Source: an uncultured delta proteobacterium (GTDB lineage: Bacteria; Myxococcota_A; Polyangia; Polyangiales; Polyangiaceae). From it: a stretch of 64,000 nucleotides of DNA. Location: assembly GCA_963841435.1 (NCBI GenBank), contig CAWJCS010000003.1, forward strand, positions 288,001 to 352,000, read 5' to 3'. Position 1 is the stretch's first letter; each line of letters opens with the position of its first letter. Position numbers and translations under genes: made by a program. The notes under the pieces were generated by a model. That model was given only the letters and a program-made list of their open reading frames with translations, did no database searches and was not told the DNA's origin. Positions 1-5,745 of this stretch are shown one piece after another.

Positions 1-1
1 C

Positions 2-700
2 GAGCTCACCCTCGACAACGGCGTCATGGAATACCAGGGGATCAACGTTCTGGAGACCAGCGCGGGCCGGATCTTCGTGCGCAGCTGCGGCGTAGCTCGC
101 GACAAGGACTCGGACGCTCGCATCATCCCCGATTTCGAGGCCACCACGAGCGGAGCCAACGCCTTTCTCAACACGGGGAAATGGGTGGCGACCCGCGAGC
201 TGACGAGCGGGATGATGAAGCTCGACGTCTACGACGTCTCTTCCGTGACGCCGGGCGAGCCGCTCGTCGAGCTCAAAAAGCCCACTGGGGTGCCTCCACA
301 GCCGTGGGAATGCAACCTGACCAAGGGCACTCAAGGCGCGCAGGTGTTCACCGAGAACGTCTCCCTGGGAGGGTCCTACGGCATCAACAACGCCAAGTAC
401 GGATCCCGCAACATCATCCCCATCACCGGTGGGACCACCACCGGCAAGGTCACCGGTATGATCCTCAACGGCGGTGCCGACTATCAGCTCTCTGGCTCAC
501 TGGACGCCTGGTACACCCTCGCTCCGGACAATGGCGAATTCATCCTGGTCAGGAATTGCGGCGCCACAGGGGGGCTCATCCCGTGGTTCGAGGCCAAGGT
601 CAACGGCGCCTACGACTTCCTCAACACTCAGGCCTACCTGAGCTCCCCCCCAGGGGTCGGCGGCGGGGGTGTGTCCATTACGTTCTACGACCGAAAATGA
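2..700 (+). CDS. DUF3237-like protein, apparently two tandem domains (5' partial)
   Basis: Frame is open from the window edge. RNIIPITGG..G.ILNGGADYQ...WFEA...YDFLN resembles DUF3237, and an earlier half repeats the pattern (VRSCG..PDFEA..AFLN). Confidence 0.6.
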   Translation, partial: ELTLDNGVMEYQGINVLETSAGRIFVRSCGVARDKDSDARIIPDFEATTSGANAFLNTGKWVATRELTSGMMKLDVYDVSSVTPGEPLVELKKPTGVPPQPWECNLTKGTQGAQVFTENVSLGGSYGINNAKYGSRNIIPITGGTTTGKVTGMILNGGADYQLSGSLDAWYTLAPDNGEFILVRNCGATGGLIPWFEAKVNGAYDFLNTQAYLSSPPGVGGGGVSITFYDRK

Positions 701-763
701 CGAGCCGGGTCCGGGCTCATCGAGCGCGAGGACTCGCGCGGGCGCCGCCACGACGGACGTAGG

Positions 764-1507
764 TTATCCCGGCAGAACCCCGAGCTCCCGGAGCCCAGGC
801 AGGATCACCCCGTCGATCGCCTCGTCCACGGCTCCGCCGACGACCTCGGACGAAAGGTACCCGAGCGCATGCAGCGCGGGATCCCCCACCCGGCTCGTGG
901 ACTGCCACACCAAACGGACGAGCCGCGTCATCTCCGGAACGTAGCCTGCGAGCATCGATCGGTCCCGCGCGCCGAGCCCCGGCCAACCGAGCAGCGCCCA
1001 ACCGAGCCGCGAATGCCCGACTTCTTCCGACAGGTGCTGCTGGTTCAACCGCCGCGCGCTCGGCACCGTGATGAGCTGATGCGAAGCCCTGAGCACGTGC
1101 ACGGCCACGGTCTCGCTGAAACAACAGCCGAATACCGTGCGCAGCAGGCGATTGTCGTGCGCCGACGCTCCCTCGAGCTCGAGTGGCCGCGTGCCGGTGA
1201 GCTCCGGCAGCACGGAGCGCTCCCCGTCCACGAGCCGCGCCCAGCGCTGACAGTAGTCAACGTGCCGGTGCTCGTCCGAGATCGCCTTCTCGGCGAGCGC
1301 CGTCAGCTCGGCTGGAGCGCCCTCCACGTGCAGATCGTCCAGCATGAACTCGAACGTCAGGGCCGTCGTCAGCTCCCCACTCGCGCGGTCAACCCAGTAG
1401 GCGTGGAGCTTGTCTCGCTGAGCGGAGGAGAGCCCAGCCAAGGCGTCGCGCGTCTCGGGCTTCTCGAGCTCTCGATCGATCTGCCGGTAGACGGCAGGCA
1501 AGCTCAC
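764..1507 (-). CDS. Ferritin-like (diiron carboxylate) domain protein
   Basis: E / DEHRH / E / EEVGH ligand pattern. GTG start at 1507 overlaps the upstream TGA (GTGA). Confidence 0.75.
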   Translation of the reverse strand: MSLPAVYRQIDRELEKPETRDALAGLSSAQRDKLHAYWVDRASGELTTALTFEFMLDDLHVEGAPAELTALAEKAISDEHRHVDYCQRWARLVDGERSVLPELTGTRPLELEGASAHDNRLLRTVFGCCFSETVAVHVLRASHQLITVPSARRLNQQHLSEEVGHSRLGWALLGWPGLGARDRSMLAGYVPEMTRLVRLVWQSTSRVGDPALHALGYLSSEVVGGAVDEAIDGVILPGLRELGVLPG

Positions 1508-2118
1508 TTCAAGATCCCGGTGAAGGCGCAGGGACACAGCGTGACGCCTTCGTCGCAGCGGATCGCGCTGACCTTGGTGCCGGACGAAAGGCTCACGCAC
1601 GGGCCGCACATGGATTCGTCCACCACGCATTCGCAGTTCACCGGGAGCTGACTCCCGCGGGCCGTCACAGCGAGCTGACAGAGAAACTGGGCGCCCGGCT
1701 CGCAGTCGTCGGGGCCCCGAGGGCGAGACGGATCGACCGGACAGCTTTCCGCGACCTCGACCCCGTAGCCGTAGCCCGCGAGCGGGCCGCTCGTGTAGTC
1801 GCACGACATGACGAGACCCCGGCAGTCCCACTGCGCCGTGACGCTGGCATCGGGCGGGATCTCGCCACCGCCGGCTCCCGCAGCCCCACCCGCGGCGCCG
1901 ACGCCGGTTCCGCCGCTGAGAGCGATGACGCCGCCGCTTCCGGCACCGGAAGAGCCGCCGCCCGCCCCGCTGCTCCCACCCGTCGGTTGGGGACCGCCCG
2001 CGCTGCCGGCGTCGTCCGTCTCGCCGTGCGTGACCGACTCACCGCCGCAGTGCGCTGCGGCGAGGCCCGCGCCCACCACGACCAGGGTGTGAAAGAGGCG
2101 GGAGCTTTGGCGTGTCAT
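1504..2118 (-). CDS. Cys-rich putative lipoprotein (12-Cys domain), paralog A
   Basis: Signal peptide with lipobox-like AAHC, Gly-rich linker, 12-Cys C-terminal domain ending CPCAFTGILK. ATGA overlap with paralog B. Confidence 0.8.
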   Translation of the reverse strand: MTRQSSRLFHTLVVVGAGLAAAHCGGESVTHGETDDAGSAGGPQPTGGSSGAGGGSSGAGSGGVIALSGGTGVGAAGGAAGAGGGEIPPDASVTAQWDCRGLVMSCDYTSGPLAGYGYGVEVAESCPVDPSRPRGPDDCEPGAQFLCQLAVTARGSQLPVNCECVVDESMCGPCVSLSSGTKVSAIRCDEGVTLCPCAFTGILK

Positions 2119-2702
2119 TTGGGGATGAGGATGCCGGTGATGGCGCAAGGGCAGACCTTGCTGGCGCCGTCACAGAACCCCTCGATCGGTCTGGGCGTGA
2201 AGGGGCTCACGCACGTGCAGTCTGCCGCGACGGGCTCGCAGCTGCAGTTCACGAGCAGGGGCTCATCGGAGACCGTGACGACCAGGTGGCAAGTGAAGCG
2301 CTCGTCGGACGCGCAGTCGGACGCGTCGCGGGGGCGGTCCAACTCGACCGGGCACGCATCGGCGAGCAGCTGCCAGGCCGAGGGCGGGGGGCCGCTGCAA
2401 GCGCCAACGAGATCCGTGCAATTCCATTGAGCCTCGGAGCCAGGCTCGGGGATGCCCGCGCTACCCGCGGCGCCACCGGGCGCGGGCTCCCCGGCACTTC
2501 CCGCGCTGCCGCCGGCCGTTCCCGCGCTTCCGCCGGCCGTTCCCGCGCTCCCGCCGGCCGTTCCCGCGCTCCCGCCGTCGCCGGCACCTCCGGCGGGGGT
2601 GCCCTTGCGATCCGAGCGGCCCGCGCAAGCGGCCACGGAAAGGCTCGCGCCGACGACGACGAGGGCGTGGAAAAAATGCGCCATGGATTTTGCCTGCCGC
2701 AC
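2115..2702 (-). CDS. Cys-rich putative lipoprotein (12-Cys domain), paralog B
   Basis: Signal peptide with VAAC lipobox, GGSAGTA repeats, 12-Cys domain ending CPCAITGILIPK. Alternative start at ATG 2684. Confidence 0.8.
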   Translation of the reverse strand: MRQAKSMAHFFHALVVVGASLSVAACAGRSDRKGTPAGGAGDGGSAGTAGGSAGTAGGSAGTAGGSAGSAGEPAPGGAAGSAGIPEPGSEAQWNCTDLVGACSGPPPSAWQLLADACPVELDRPRDASDCASDERFTCHLVVTVSDEPLLVNCSCEPVAADCTCVSPFTPRPIEGFCDGASKVCPCAITGILIPK

Positions 2703-2958: not shown

Positions 2959-3927
2959 TCAACCGCGCGGGGCAACCCTCGCCGCGAGGCGATCGAACAC
3001 GGTCCAGAATTGGGAGCGATATCCGTCGACCTCCATCAGGATCTCGTGGAACGCCGAGGGCACCTCGGCGTAGGTGCCGTCCTTTAGGCGCGCCGCGAAA
3101 CGACGGATCGGACCGTTGTTCACGACGTGGTCGTCGCCCGCCGCCACGACCGAAACCGGGCACGACAGGCGCTCGGCCGCAAAAGCTTCCGAGAGGCGCC
3201 CGCGGAGCTCGAGGCCAAACTTCAACCAGCGCCAGGTTGGCTCGCCGAGGCGAAGCTCGGGGTGAGCGCGGTAGAGTGCCAGCGCTTTCTCGTAGCGGGC
3301 CCGATCGTGCGTGAGAACGTTGTCTTCGAACGGCACGCCCAACGGATCGCTCTGCTTTCTCGCCAGATTCGTGCCGCGGCCGAGCGCGACGGCGACGGCG
3401 ACCACCGGGCGAGCCAGCCAGACGGGGATGCTGCCGGTCGAAAACTCCATCATCGGCGCGCACAGCACAGCGCCGTCGAAGTGGGCGATCCCGTCCGAAA
3501 GCGCCAGCGTGGTGAGCGCTGCGCCCATGGAATGCCCCATCGCGATCCAGGGTCGCGGCAAGTGCTCGGTTTGTGACGCCACAACGTCCGCGAAGTCCGA
3601 AAGGAAAGCGCCACAGCCCCCGACCACGTCACCGCGCAGGGGGTCGTCGAGAAAGCGCGTGGAGCACCCCTGCCCTGCCCAGTCGTGGAGCACGACGACG
3701 AAGCCGCGCGCCACGAGGTCGCGCGCCACCTCGCCGTACTTTTCGATCGGCTCGGTTCGACCAGGGCTGAAGACGACGGCCCCCCGCGGCAGCCCGCGCG
3801 GCGTGAAGCGCGCCACGCGCAGGCGTTAACCGGAGCTCGCGAATAGCCACTCCGCGGACCCTTCGGGCAGCTCGAACGCCCCCTGCACATGCCGGAGCGG
3901 CGCGGGCTCGGTTCGGAGCACGAGCAT
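2959..3927 (-). pseudogene. Lysophospholipase-like alpha/beta hydrolase with in-frame TAA at 3826-3828
   Basis: PGRTEPIEKY, DWAGQG, GHSMG and FHEILME motifs. The upstream segment (MLVL..AEWLFASSG*RLRVARF) is in the same frame across a single stop. Confidence 0.7.
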
Positions 3928-4200
3928 CCTCAGGGCCGCGCAGCACGATCCAGGCGCACGAGGAACACGCCGGGGCCATCTGCTCGCAGGAGATTGTCGT
4001 GGCCGAAGTCGGCAAGAAAGCCAATTGCCCTCACCGCGCCAGTGTATCGCGACTCGACGCCGACGCCCGGCGACTTGCTTCACGGCGTTTTACGACTCGG
4101 GTGGTTCCGTCGCGACGACCAGGGGGTTCTTCGCTTTGGTTGGACAGCACGCTCGCGGCGTGGAACGTCGACACGAGCACTTTTCCCGCGATTTCAAATC

Positions 4201-5745
4201 ATGCGCAGACTTATCGTTCCTGGCGTGCTGTTGGCGTCGCTCGCCATCGCGTGCGGTGGGACCGAGCCTGCTTCGTCGACGGCGAGCGGCGGAAACGGCG
4301 CAGCGGTCGGCGGCACGGCGAACGCTGGCGCGAGCGCGGGCACTTCGGCGCAGAGCGGCGGCGCGACGCAGAGCGGCGGCGCGGGCGGCAGTGCGGGCGC
4401 TGGTGCCACCCTTGGCGGAGCGGGGAACGGCGCGGGAGCGCCAGGTGGTAGCGGGGCGGGCGGAGCAGGAACGGGCGGCACCGAAACGGGCGGGGCCGGC
4501 ACGAGCGGCGCCGGAAGCAGCGGCGCTCCTTTCGGCAGTGCGGGCGACGCCGGAAGCAGCGGATCTCCGAGCGGCGGCGCGGGCGGCGACGCGAGCGGGG
4601 GGACGCAGAACGGCGGAACCGCGGGCGGAAGCGGAACCGCGGGCGGAAGCGGAACCGCGGGCGCCGGTGGCGCGGATCCCGGTAACCCGTGCACGAGCGG
4701 GACGGGCGGCGCCGCGACGAGCCTGCGCGACAAGTACGCGCCTTGTTTTCCGGTCGGCGCTGCCGTCGATGCTCAATCGTACATGACGCACGCGGCCTTG
4801 CTGACGAAGCACTTCAACAGTGTCACTGCCGAAAACGACATGAAGTTCGACGCGCTCGAGCCCAACGAAGGGCAGTTTACCTATGGGACGGCGGACAACA
4901 TCGTCAGCTTCGCGACGAGCAACGGGATGAAGGTCCGCGGCCACGCCCTGGTCTGGCACCGACAGACCCCGGCGTGGGTGTTCGCGAACGCCTCGAAGGA
5001 CGTGCTCCTACAGCGGATGCGGAATCACATCGACAACGTGATGAAGCATTTCAGCGGGAAGGTCTACGCCTGGGACGTCGTCAACGAAGCGATGATGGAG
5101 GACGGCGACTATCGTAAGGGCGACGAGACCAACGACGATCAGAAGAGCCAGTGGTACGCGCTCGCCGGCGCCGACTACATCGCGGAAGCGTTTCGCGCCG
5201 CGCGCGCGGCCGACCCCAACGCCAAGCTCTTTTACAACGACTACTACAACTACCTGCCGATCAAGCAGCAGGGCATCCACGACATGCTCAAGGGCCTCCT
5301 CGACCAGGGCGTGCCCGTCAACGGCGTCGGTCTGCAGTGCCACCTGAACATCGAGCCTTCCACGGACTCGACCAATCAGGCCTACTACCAAGCGGTCAAC
5401 CACCTCGAGGACGCCATCAAGCTCTACGCTTCGTTGGGCCTCGAAGTTCAGATCACCGAGCTCGACGTGTCGCTCTACATTCCCGGCATTACTTACACGT
5501 CGAGCCAGTTCTACACCGAGGCGACGTTCACCGACGCTCTGAAGACCCAGCAAGCAGCACGCTATCAGAGCTTTTTCGAGCTCTTCCGCAAGTACGCGGG
5601 CGTCGTCACGGGGGTGACGTTCTGGGGCGTCGCCGACGACAACACCTGGCTCTCCGAGTTCAGCTCCGGTCGCAAGGATTTTCCGCTGTTGTTCGACACG
5701 AGCCACCAGCCCAAGAAGGCCTACGACGCGGTCGTGAATTTCTGA
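4201..5745 (+). CDS. GH10 endo-1,4-beta-xylanase, lipoprotein with Gly-rich linker
   Basis: LAIAC lipobox; AENDMK, RGHALVWH, WDVVNE, LFYNDY and ITELDV motifs. Confidence 0.93.
   Translation: MRRLIVPGVLLASLAIACGGTEPASSTASGGNGAAVGGTANAGASAGTSAQSGGATQSGGAGGSAGAGATLGGAGNGAGAPGGSGAGGAGTGGTETGGAGTSGAGSSGAPFGSAGDAGSSGSPSGGAGGDASGGTQNGGTAGGSGTAGGSGTAGAGGADPGNPCTSGTGGAATSLRDKYAPCFPVGAAVDAQSYMTHAALLTKHFNSVTAENDMKFDALEPNEGQFTYGTADNIVSFATSNGMKVRGHALVWHRQTPAWVFANASKDVLLQRMRNHIDNVMKHFSGKVYAWDVVNEAMMEDGDYRKGDETNDDQKSQWYALAGADYIAEAFRAARAADPNAKLFYNDYYNYLPIKQQGIHDMLKGLLDQGVPVNGVGLQCHLNIEPSTDSTNQAYYQAVNHLEDAIKLYASLGLEVQITELDVSLYIPGITYTSSQFYTEATFTDALKTQQAARYQSFFELFRKYAGVVTGVTFWGVADDNTWLSEFSSGRKDFPLLFDTSHQPKKAYDAVVNF

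Follow-up and report, generated by a model that had tools for sequence, protein, structure and literature searches.

We describe a three-gene unit, A/B/C, located in a window of 64,000 nucleotides from an uncultured delta proteobacterium (assembly GCA_963841435.1, contig CAWJCS010000003.1, positions 288,001 to 352,000; "the window" below means this whole stretch). Two of the genes code for paralogous predicted lipoproteins, A and B, and the third codes for C, a ferritin-like protein of the diiron oxygenase type. The unit is real and tightly conserved, and it recurs across soil myxobacteria. On balance, we think it probable that C oxidizes the C-terminal tail of its lipoprotein partners in the cytoplasm before their export, as in the DAG-RiPPs, which are hybrids of lipoproteins and RiPPs (peptides made by the ribosome and modified after translation), but by means of a ferritin-like enzyme; the cysteines (Cys) are probably not the target. 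The unit is apparently undescribed and appears to combine RiPP-lipoprotein logic with a different enzyme class.

The gene unit and its recurrence across genomes

All three genes lie on the minus strand. Gene A (2115..2684) codes for a predicted lipoprotein of 189 amino acids, gene B (1504..2118) for its paralogue of 204 amino acids, and gene C (764..1507), which has a GTG start, for a protein of 247 amino acids. The joining of the genes by ATGA and GTGA overlaps, reported in the original prediction, was read directly at both junctions: the stop codon of A and the start codon of B overlap by four nucleotides in ...CCCAA-ATGA-CACG, and those of B and C overlap in ...TTGAA-GTGA-GCTT. The start of A had been placed at 2702, which is an upstream in-frame GTG. 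Because the homologues begin with M-S-R-L/F-F-H, the ATG at 2684 is the likelier start. A sigma-70-like promoter was looked for at the unit and none was found. The source genome has 68.7% GC and a size of 7.78 Mb, and the named relatives of C come from Polyangiaceae and other Myxococcota.

The association of the two gene types was assessed from both sides. Starting from the enzyme, an A/B-type gene was found directly upstream of the C homologue in 28 of the 30 close-clade loci with readable upstream DNA (33 were fetched, three of them without upstream DNA; several are near-duplicates, so the 30 are not independent events). Among the 28 pairs, two partners were seen only as tails and one is frameshifted. 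Starting from the partner, a Cys-domain profile built without leader and tail was searched over 383 genomes of the family, 35 of which gave 47 matches. Rather than usually occurring without a ferritin-like gene, these Cys-rich genes have, in 40 cases, a C-type gene of the same strand directly next to them, on the upstream or the downstream side. Of the remaining matches, three are truncated because the contig ends on the side that matters, and four have no enzyme in the fetched regions of 9-12.5 kb.

The pairing extends to the wider enzyme family. The 55 best enzyme matches in 401 genomes were sampled, of which 51 loci were examined, 15 of them by eye; the four left out lie near contig ends or on short contigs, one of them starting at its contig's end. 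An adjacent small lipoprotein with the signal-peptide tag described below, or a variant of it, was present at 50 of the 51 loci, the exception being L096. These partners share only the tag, the lipobox Cys and a short hydrophobic tail, and some of them have ~65 residues and no Cys in the mature part. The Cys domain was rejected as a common feature of the wider family, given that 14 intact partners lack mature Cys.

The presence of two paralogous partners is local to the window. Close loci carry one each, which rules out that two paralogues are needed, and further pairs were found at L041, L048 and L068. No third conserved gene was detected in 19 flanking regions, in which other shared open reading frame (ORF) groups occur in at most four loci, mostly pairs of near relatives. 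Likewise, no transporter, reductase, protease or regulator gene recurs in these 19 regions.

Tag, tail and cysteine domain of the partner lipoproteins

A and B have the same layout, consisting of a hydrophobic N-terminal stretch, a Cys (residue 20 in A, 24 in B), a Gly/Ala/Ser linker, a 12-Cys domain and a tail of the form A-x-T-G-I-L. They are 35-37% identical (E about 6e-14, tblastn). Of the 13 Cys in each protein, one occupies the lipobox position and the other 12 belong to the C-terminal domain, where all 12 align between A and B, as had been claimed. Among 13-residue windows starting within the first 30 residues, the best hydropathy is 2.33 for A, 1.99 for B and -0.05 for C, which agrees with the earlier observation that C has no signal peptide. 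The label "lipoprotein" is a prediction based on the hydrophobic stretch and the invariant Cys. In A, this is Cys20 (V-A-A-C; 2625..2627, minus strand), the predicted diacylglyceryl site, which is conserved in every one of the 23 aligned partners. A conforms to the strict lipobox [LVI][ASTVI][GAS]C, and B has the atypical A-A-H-C with His at position -1. The strict form is matched by 19 of 70 partners, and G, A or S stands at -1 in 63 of the 70. A sub-clade (L004, L005, L018, L020, L022-L026 and L029) has an additional Cys within the signal peptide (LVVCGAG) and an added Cys pair, and some of its members carry D, E, Q or H at lipobox position -1.

A motif common to all partner types, (L/F)-F-(H)-(A/T/S)-(I/L/V)-V-x-x-G, stands at the start of the hydrophobic stretch. 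We call it the tag and regard it as a putative enzyme recognition motif. It comprises residues 4-12 of A (FFHALVVVG; 2649..2675, minus strand) and residues 8-16 of B (LFHTLVVVG; 2071..2097, minus strand). The signal region had been described as unusually conserved; its conservation within the A/B-type clade is 0.72, and the tag reaches beyond this clade to the other partner types. A profile of the tag was trained on 38 partners of other types, none of which has an A/B-type Cys domain, and was used to rank 2185 lipobox-like windows from all six frames of this genome. B was first with a score of 26.8 and A second with 26.5, followed by the next window at 10.4. An earlier version of the profile placed B first of 783 windows and missed A. 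Because a profile trained on foreign partners puts B and A at the top of 2185 windows, the tag is, as judged by its sequence, more than ordinary signal-peptide hydrophobicity. The tag lies 14-19 residues from the lipobox in 37 of 38 training leaders, without a fixed register, and 21 of 72 leaders have R, S, Q or another residue in place of its His. Two arginines directly precede the tag in just one of 62 partners, which rules out export of the partners by the twin-arginine translocation (Tat) pathway.

The tails of A (AITGILIPK; 2118..2144) and B (AFTGILK; 1507..1527), both on the minus strand, are the putative modification sites. A181, T183 and I185 are invariant in 23 of 23 aligned partners, as is the pattern C-x-C-A-x-T-x-I. 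Within the A/B-type clade, the last Cys pair with the tail (residues 178-186) has a column conservation of 0.79, compared with 0.72 for the leader, 0.44 for the linker and 0.45 for the Cys domain. Across the partners, the following ends were found: CxC-AxT[G/C]I (A/B-type), CGC-xxxxL (sister), CxC-xxI (repeat-Cys), PPC-xxI, DAMVLIL, GWPTTK and FPGISP. Their common feature is the presence of aliphatic or beta-branched residues 2-3 positions from the end. A tree was built by a quick method from 80 enzymes with 4 outgroups, and on it the 11 tail labels require 11 changes (minimum 10), compared with 59.5 in shuffles. For the sequences sampled, this shows that enzyme and partner travel together. 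Tail types such as DAMVLIL and GWPTTK are spread over several families. In the partners at L083 and L095, a repeated or internal D-T-F-P-G-I-S-P replaces the terminal tail, an arrangement resembling a multi-core precursor.

The 12-Cys domain of A (2145..2435, minus strand) is predicted to be disulfide-bonded, and its 12 Cys are aligned with those of the B domain (1528..1833, minus strand). In the AlphaFold2 model of A, residues 6-76 are largely unstructured and about 81-180 form a beta-rich part with a block predicted local distance difference test (pLDDT) score of 67-96. A Foldseek comparison of the full-length model with known structures gave no match (best E 3.3), and Pfam and NCBIfam scans of A, B and the 23 aligned partners gave no family match. 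Of the 70 distinct partners, 16 (14 intact and two frameshift fragments) lack any Cys beyond the lipobox. The number of mature Cys is even in 53 of the 54 Cys-bearing partners, with a range of 2 to 20, which makes 69 of 70 with an even number when zero is included, and Cys 13 and 14 arise together within the A/B-type clade. The even counts suggest disulfides formed after export. The 12 Cys seem to have a structural role, and the wider family can do without them.

Four Cys-domain genes lacking an adjacent enzyme gene serve as natural controls. The G390:C74 gene has an ordinary signal peptide (tag score 0.0) and ends at C-G-C-G-V without a tail. In the G514:C572 gene, the tag is degenerate (score 3.4) and the tail altered. 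The G502:C8 gene, from a 72%-complete genome in which no enzyme was found, has a partly decayed tag (0.9) and keeps the tail. The G517:C236 gene keeps both the tag (21.5) and the tail; in its genome there is also an enzyme of the same clade (E 2e-59) that has no partner next to it, as would be expected if the pair had been split in trans. The tag scores of partnered copies with a readable N-terminus are 11-23, except for L138 (-2.6). Judged by these genes, the Cys domain can exist without the enzyme, and tag and tail then tend to decay. At L138, an ORF convergent with the enzyme gene (2986-3999, minus strand) codes for what we take, from its motifs, to resemble a radical SAM/SPASM protein.

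Enzyme C and the proposed maturation of its partners

The set of E45, E79-x-x-H82, E132 and E162-x-x-H165 that had been noted in the third gene is present in C. Together with H158, these residues form a 3His/4Glu pattern of putative ligands. Of 135 sequences of the broad family, 134-135 retain each of E45, E79, H82, E132 and H165, and 134 have an acidic residue at position 162 (122 E and 12 D). H158 is found in 23 of 23 members of the A/B/C clade, 11 of 12 members of the sister clade and 10 of 10 in each of two further clades, and it is absent in three others. The pocket-near positions 44, 48, 127, 155 and 158 vary with the tail type of the partner. C gave no family match above the cut-off in Pfam and NCBIfam and no DUF692 match. 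Its similarity to PF11583 (AurF) reaches E 6e-4 and 19.5 bits, below the gathering cut-off of 29.6; several C homologues carry a precomputed PF11583 label.

The AlphaFold2 model of C (pLDDT 96.7) is all-helical and has nine helices. The nearest folds are PaaC-like SSO1313 (4mud; Z 17.3, root-mean-square deviation (rmsd) 3.1, 208 residues aligned) and toluene monooxygenase (ToMO; Z 17.0), together with soluble methane monooxygenase (sMMO; Z 16.5), aldehyde-deformylating oxygenase (ADO; Z 16.0) and R2lox (Z 14.7). In this top group, about 200-228 residues are aligned with an rmsd of 3.1-4.1 and 11-14% identity, and Z values of this size among helical bundles show, for such a model, the fold class and no function. 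AurF (Z 12.0, rmsd 3.8, 216 aligned) and CmlI (Z 11.2) are 13-16% identical to C. Dps and bacterioferritins reach Z 9.4-11.1 over just 134-151 residues, compared with about 200-230 residues at Z 12-17 for the oxygenases. An identity of C as ferritin, bacterioferritin or Dps was rejected, as C has 247 residues and nine helices in place of a four-helix subunit of ~150-180 residues, and its nearest folds are oxygenases. Foldseek found nothing at E up to 1e-3 among known structures, with R2lox, PaaC-like and ADO chains leading the list. A search of the C profile against the sequences of solved structures gave three chance matches only (E 1.1-2).

With a C homologue as the query, the nearest clusters in the ESM Atlas are unnamed Myxococcota proteins at 0.95. 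The close clade of C comprises at least 126 clusters, of which the 120 among those listed are 54-71% identical, apart from C itself. When clustered at 50% identity, the wider family amounts to 3978 clusters for E up to 1e-3, and to 683 for E up to 1e-10. At the latter threshold, a member is present in 232 of 401 sampled genomes of the order, a tally that includes the unpublished genomes G314, G123, G396 and G387, which enter no other result given here. The annotations of family members go no further than hypothetical, ferritin-like or diiron oxygenase.

This genome (G000) also encodes distant paralogues of C. One (contig C4, 729035-730498, plus strand) is preceded by a lipoprotein free of mature Cys, with repeats TVFLAGFGG / VAAGAFGG and a different leader. 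Another (contig C6, 779058-777766, minus strand) directly follows a Cys-rich lipoprotein that ends in CSPWGPPVPPALVIA and has yet another leader type. In three others, all on the plus strand (contig C5, 16026-17933; contig C3, 76367-77674; contig C2, 202116-203333), the ferritin-like domain is at the C-terminus of a longer chain. The C5 chain consists of a lipoprotein signal, a Gly-rich linker, a Cys-rich part and a C-G-R-P junction. Such longer chains may represent self-modification in cis or an exported enzyme.

The proposed maturation would proceed as follows. A and B would be made with a weakly hydrophobic, tagged signal peptide, and C, a predicted cytoplasmic diiron oxygenase, would dock on the tag before export and oxidize a residue in the short tail A-x-T-G-I-L-K/R. 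Export by the general secretory (Sec) pathway, lipidation at the lipobox Cys and formation of six predicted disulfides would then follow. We infer the binding, the target and the order of events; modification before export is forced by the topology if C touches A or B at all. Cys is an unlikely target of C, the CPC part of the tail included, because partners free of mature Cys accompany sister enzymes that have all seven putative ligands. As to the chemistry, we would guess that C oxygenates or desaturates the aliphatic Thr/Ile/Leu end of the tail or acts on the C-terminal backbone, because tails such as DAMVLIL, which go with the same 3His/4Glu site in sister clades, contain neither Cys nor a side chain with an amine or an aromatic group. 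In view of the third His, which is AurF-like, N-oxygenation is another option. With no reductase gene linked to the unit, we propose that the general reductants of the cell would supply the electrons. The outcome would be a domain that is knotted by disulfides, tethered to the membrane and carried on a flexible stalk, displaying a modified tail that might bind metal, a cell or the matrix. A complex prediction for C, full-length A and two Fe gave a score of 0.02 (mark 0.32), which weighs neither way.

An arrangement in which the lipoprotein is a tether or carrier seems unlikely to us. Its tail would bind C as a split form of a fused lipoprotein-enzyme, and C would work at the membrane or outside on another substrate. 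Distant paralogues (e.g., the C5 chain described above) and P0267 do combine lipoprotein signal, linker, Cys-rich part and ferritin-like domain in one chain, the minimal partners consist of signal, linker and hydrophobic tail only, and a tail type tracking the enzyme clade would also be expected of a binding interface. However, C has no signal peptide, export of a folded protein carried by its partner needs Tat, and the near absence of twin arginines has been given above. After Sec export, the two proteins would sit on opposite sides of the membrane, and the conserved tag in the cut-off peptide would be left unexplained. That tag is at the centre of a less probable reading, in which the signal peptide itself is the substrate or product: C would oxidize the tag or an amino acid close to the lipobox, or the peptide, once released, would act as a signal, and the mature lipoprotein would be a by-stander. 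In enterococci, peptide signals are cut from lipoprotein signal peptides, and here no sequence other than the tag is shared by every partner type, and the tag keeps no fixed register with the lipobox. Against this stand the tail, which within the clade is conserved like the leader and differs among enzyme clades while the tag stays alike, the pocket-near positions of C that change with tail type, and the frequent replacement of the tag His.

The original prediction had offered two readings, a RiPP-like maturation with the leader and the CPCAxTGIL end as recognition and modification sites, and a metal or redox module. The former is partly supported. The comparative evidence for it is strong and consists of the near-obligate pairing in both directions, the partner-specific tag, the tail type that tracks the enzyme tree and the tag decay in three of four orphans; the modification itself is a prediction, and the CPC part of the end is an unlikely target. 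The latter has been weakened, and we give it a low probability, lower again than that of the signal peptide as substrate. In such a module, C would store iron or remove peroxide in the cytoplasm, the Cys-rich lipoproteins would bind metal or buffer redox outside, and the coupling would serve co-regulation. The ferritin-like four-helix core, the 12 Cys per partner and the translational coupling are in its favour, but the fold of C groups with oxygenase-type proteins and not with ferritin, Dps or bacterioferritin, intact partners without mature Cys and even counts in the others are common, and no transporter, regulator or reductase recurs in the flanking regions. Moreover, co-regulation explains neither the tag nor its decay in orphans. 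Least probable of the alternatives is a Cys-directed chemistry like that of bufferins or chryseobasin, by which C would make heterocycles or cross-links out of some Cys, such as those of the C-P-C pair, and so produce a membrane-bound metallophore. CPCAxTGIL recalls the C-terminal CPxCGxG motif described for ChrH/DybH substrates (PMC13056109), and the two modified Cys plus one disulfide described for bufferins would also yield even counts (PMC11626156). [quoted passage not shown]

Several points weigh against cytoplasmic oxidation of the tail. Modification, binding, metal content and expression are all putative, the evidence for the unit being sequences and models. The close enzymes at L014 and L019 and the distant one at L096 have no neighbouring partner. 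Concordance with the tree would also be expected from plain co-inheritance of a two-gene unit, and the tail labels were set by the analyst from the tails on a quick version of the tree. Tails differ so widely among clades that no single target residue can be named. In one sub-clade, a Cys stands in place of the tail Gly and a further Cys has been gained with it, which suggests that a disulfide can tie the tail to the domain and that the tail may be structural. The training leaders of the tag profile were gathered with a motif-derived pattern, so their own scores are partly circular, which does not apply to the genome-wide ranking of A and B. The orphan sample is small (n=4), and the low tag score of the partnered L138 copy means that such scores are not unique to orphans. 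The distant paralogues fused behind a lipoprotein signal peptide fit an exported enzyme equally well. Finally, the signal peptide of bufferins is described as dispensable for modification (PMC11626156).

Relation to known systems and neighbouring genes

The closest logic was found in the DAG-RiPPs, or RiPP-lipoprotein hybrids, exemplified by DybA/DybH, NedA/NedBC and also MelA1/MelH, in which, according to the main text of PMC13056109, cytoplasmic iron enzymes modify a C-terminal motif of lipoprotein precursors before export. As in the DAG-RiPPs, the A/B/C unit combines predicted lipoprotein precursors having a putative lipobox Cys with an adjacent signal-less, predicted iron enzyme and a conserved C-terminal motif (PMC13056109). 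The cytoplasmic modification before export described there matches the order proposed here, and the precursors of that group may also be folded proteins (PMC13056109). In contrast, the enzymes of DAG-RiPPs belong to the MNIOs (DUF692, TIM barrel) and have Cys motifs as their targets (PMC13056109), whereas the A/B/C-type enzyme is a ferritin-like helical diiron protein, has no linked partner-protein gene, pairs with many partners without mature Cys and goes with a family-wide signal-peptide tag. The modification is reported as demonstrated for DAG-RiPPs (PMC13056109), and for A/B/C it is a prediction. The words "ferritin" and "diiron" are absent from the main text of PMC13056109.

Bufferins (BufA/BufB/BufC) are described as small, Cys-containing, folded precursors with a Sec signal peptide, a cytoplasmic iron enzyme and a disulfide formed after export, and they include a BUF_6/12Cys class (PMC11626156). 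They differ from A/B/C in having an MNIO with a DUF2063 partner, conversion of Cys to thiooxazole and, under overexpression, a dispensable signal peptide (PMC11626156). Membership of A and B in this group was rejected, as neither they nor the 23 partners match DUF2282 or BUF_6/12Cys and no third gene recurs. The all-helical model and the lack of a DUF692 match likewise exclude an MNIO-type DAG-RiPP or bufferin enzyme as the identity of C.

Among ferritin-like diiron oxygenases, the 3His/4-carboxylate mode is described as largely unique to N-oxygenases (PMC12101540). The segment H158-x-x-E-E-x-x-H165 of C corresponds to the HxxDExxH motif found in AurF and CylC (PMC12101540). The AurF/CmlI N-oxygenases and CylC-type halogenases share with C the DExxH and HxxD/EExxH motifs, and possibly a 3His/4Glu site (PMC12101540). 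Unlike C, they are reported to act on arylamine or carrier-bound acyl substrates in natural-product clusters (PMC12101540), none of which is linked to A/B/C. AurF and CmlI also differ from C in that C fails the PF11583 cut-off, they are not the top structural matches, and H158 is missing in three sister clades. The best fold matches are PaaC-like SSO1313, toluene and methane monooxygenase, ADO and R2lox, and no genes for partner subunits or a reductase lie near C.

In the open-access PubMed Central (PMC) and bioRxiv literature, which sets the scope of the search (subscription papers and supplements lie outside it), no description was found of ferritin-like enzymes paired with lipoprotein precursors, and no report of ferritin-like diiron oxygenases acting on ribosomal precursors. 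The A/B/C unit may represent a single clade within a maturation system of myxobacteria that is very large and so far undescribed, although we put the chances of this somewhat below even. In this system, ferritin-like diiron oxygenases would use a signal-peptide motif as the leader and oxidize unactivated aliphatic residues or the C-terminal backbone, giving hundreds of lipid-anchored modified peptides and proteins on the envelope. If true, it would provide a new enzyme class, and probably new chemistry, for the modification of ribosomal peptides and proteins, with a signal peptide that doubles as the enzyme-docking leader, which bufferins did not need. With two genes and a single enzyme, such a system would lend itself to easy testing, and its natural partners of 65 residues would be easy to engineer for surface display. 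It would also explain a frequent feature of myxobacteria, namely small low-complexity lipoproteins adjoining ferritin-like genes.

The unit is flanked by a DUF3237 gene, convergent with C on the downstream side, and a lysophospholipase-like gene on the upstream side. A weak terminator-like hairpin (699..721, minus strand) lies between C and the DUF3237 gene; three terminator-like sites were found, compared with 1.0 +/- 1.1 in shuffled sequence, which is a weak excess. The DUF3237 gene (window 1-700, plus strand) lies outside the A/B/C unit. The gene just upstream of A (2959-4083, minus strand) is lysophospholipase L2-like (NF008019, E 3e-43, below the cut-off). Its frame is broken by an in-frame TAA at 3828-3826, after ...AEWLFASSG, which indicates a disrupted gene or a sequencing error. 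Also outside the unit, a GH10 xylanase with a lipoprotein-like Gly-rich N-terminus is encoded at 3889-5745 on the plus strand (PF00331, E 4e-101).

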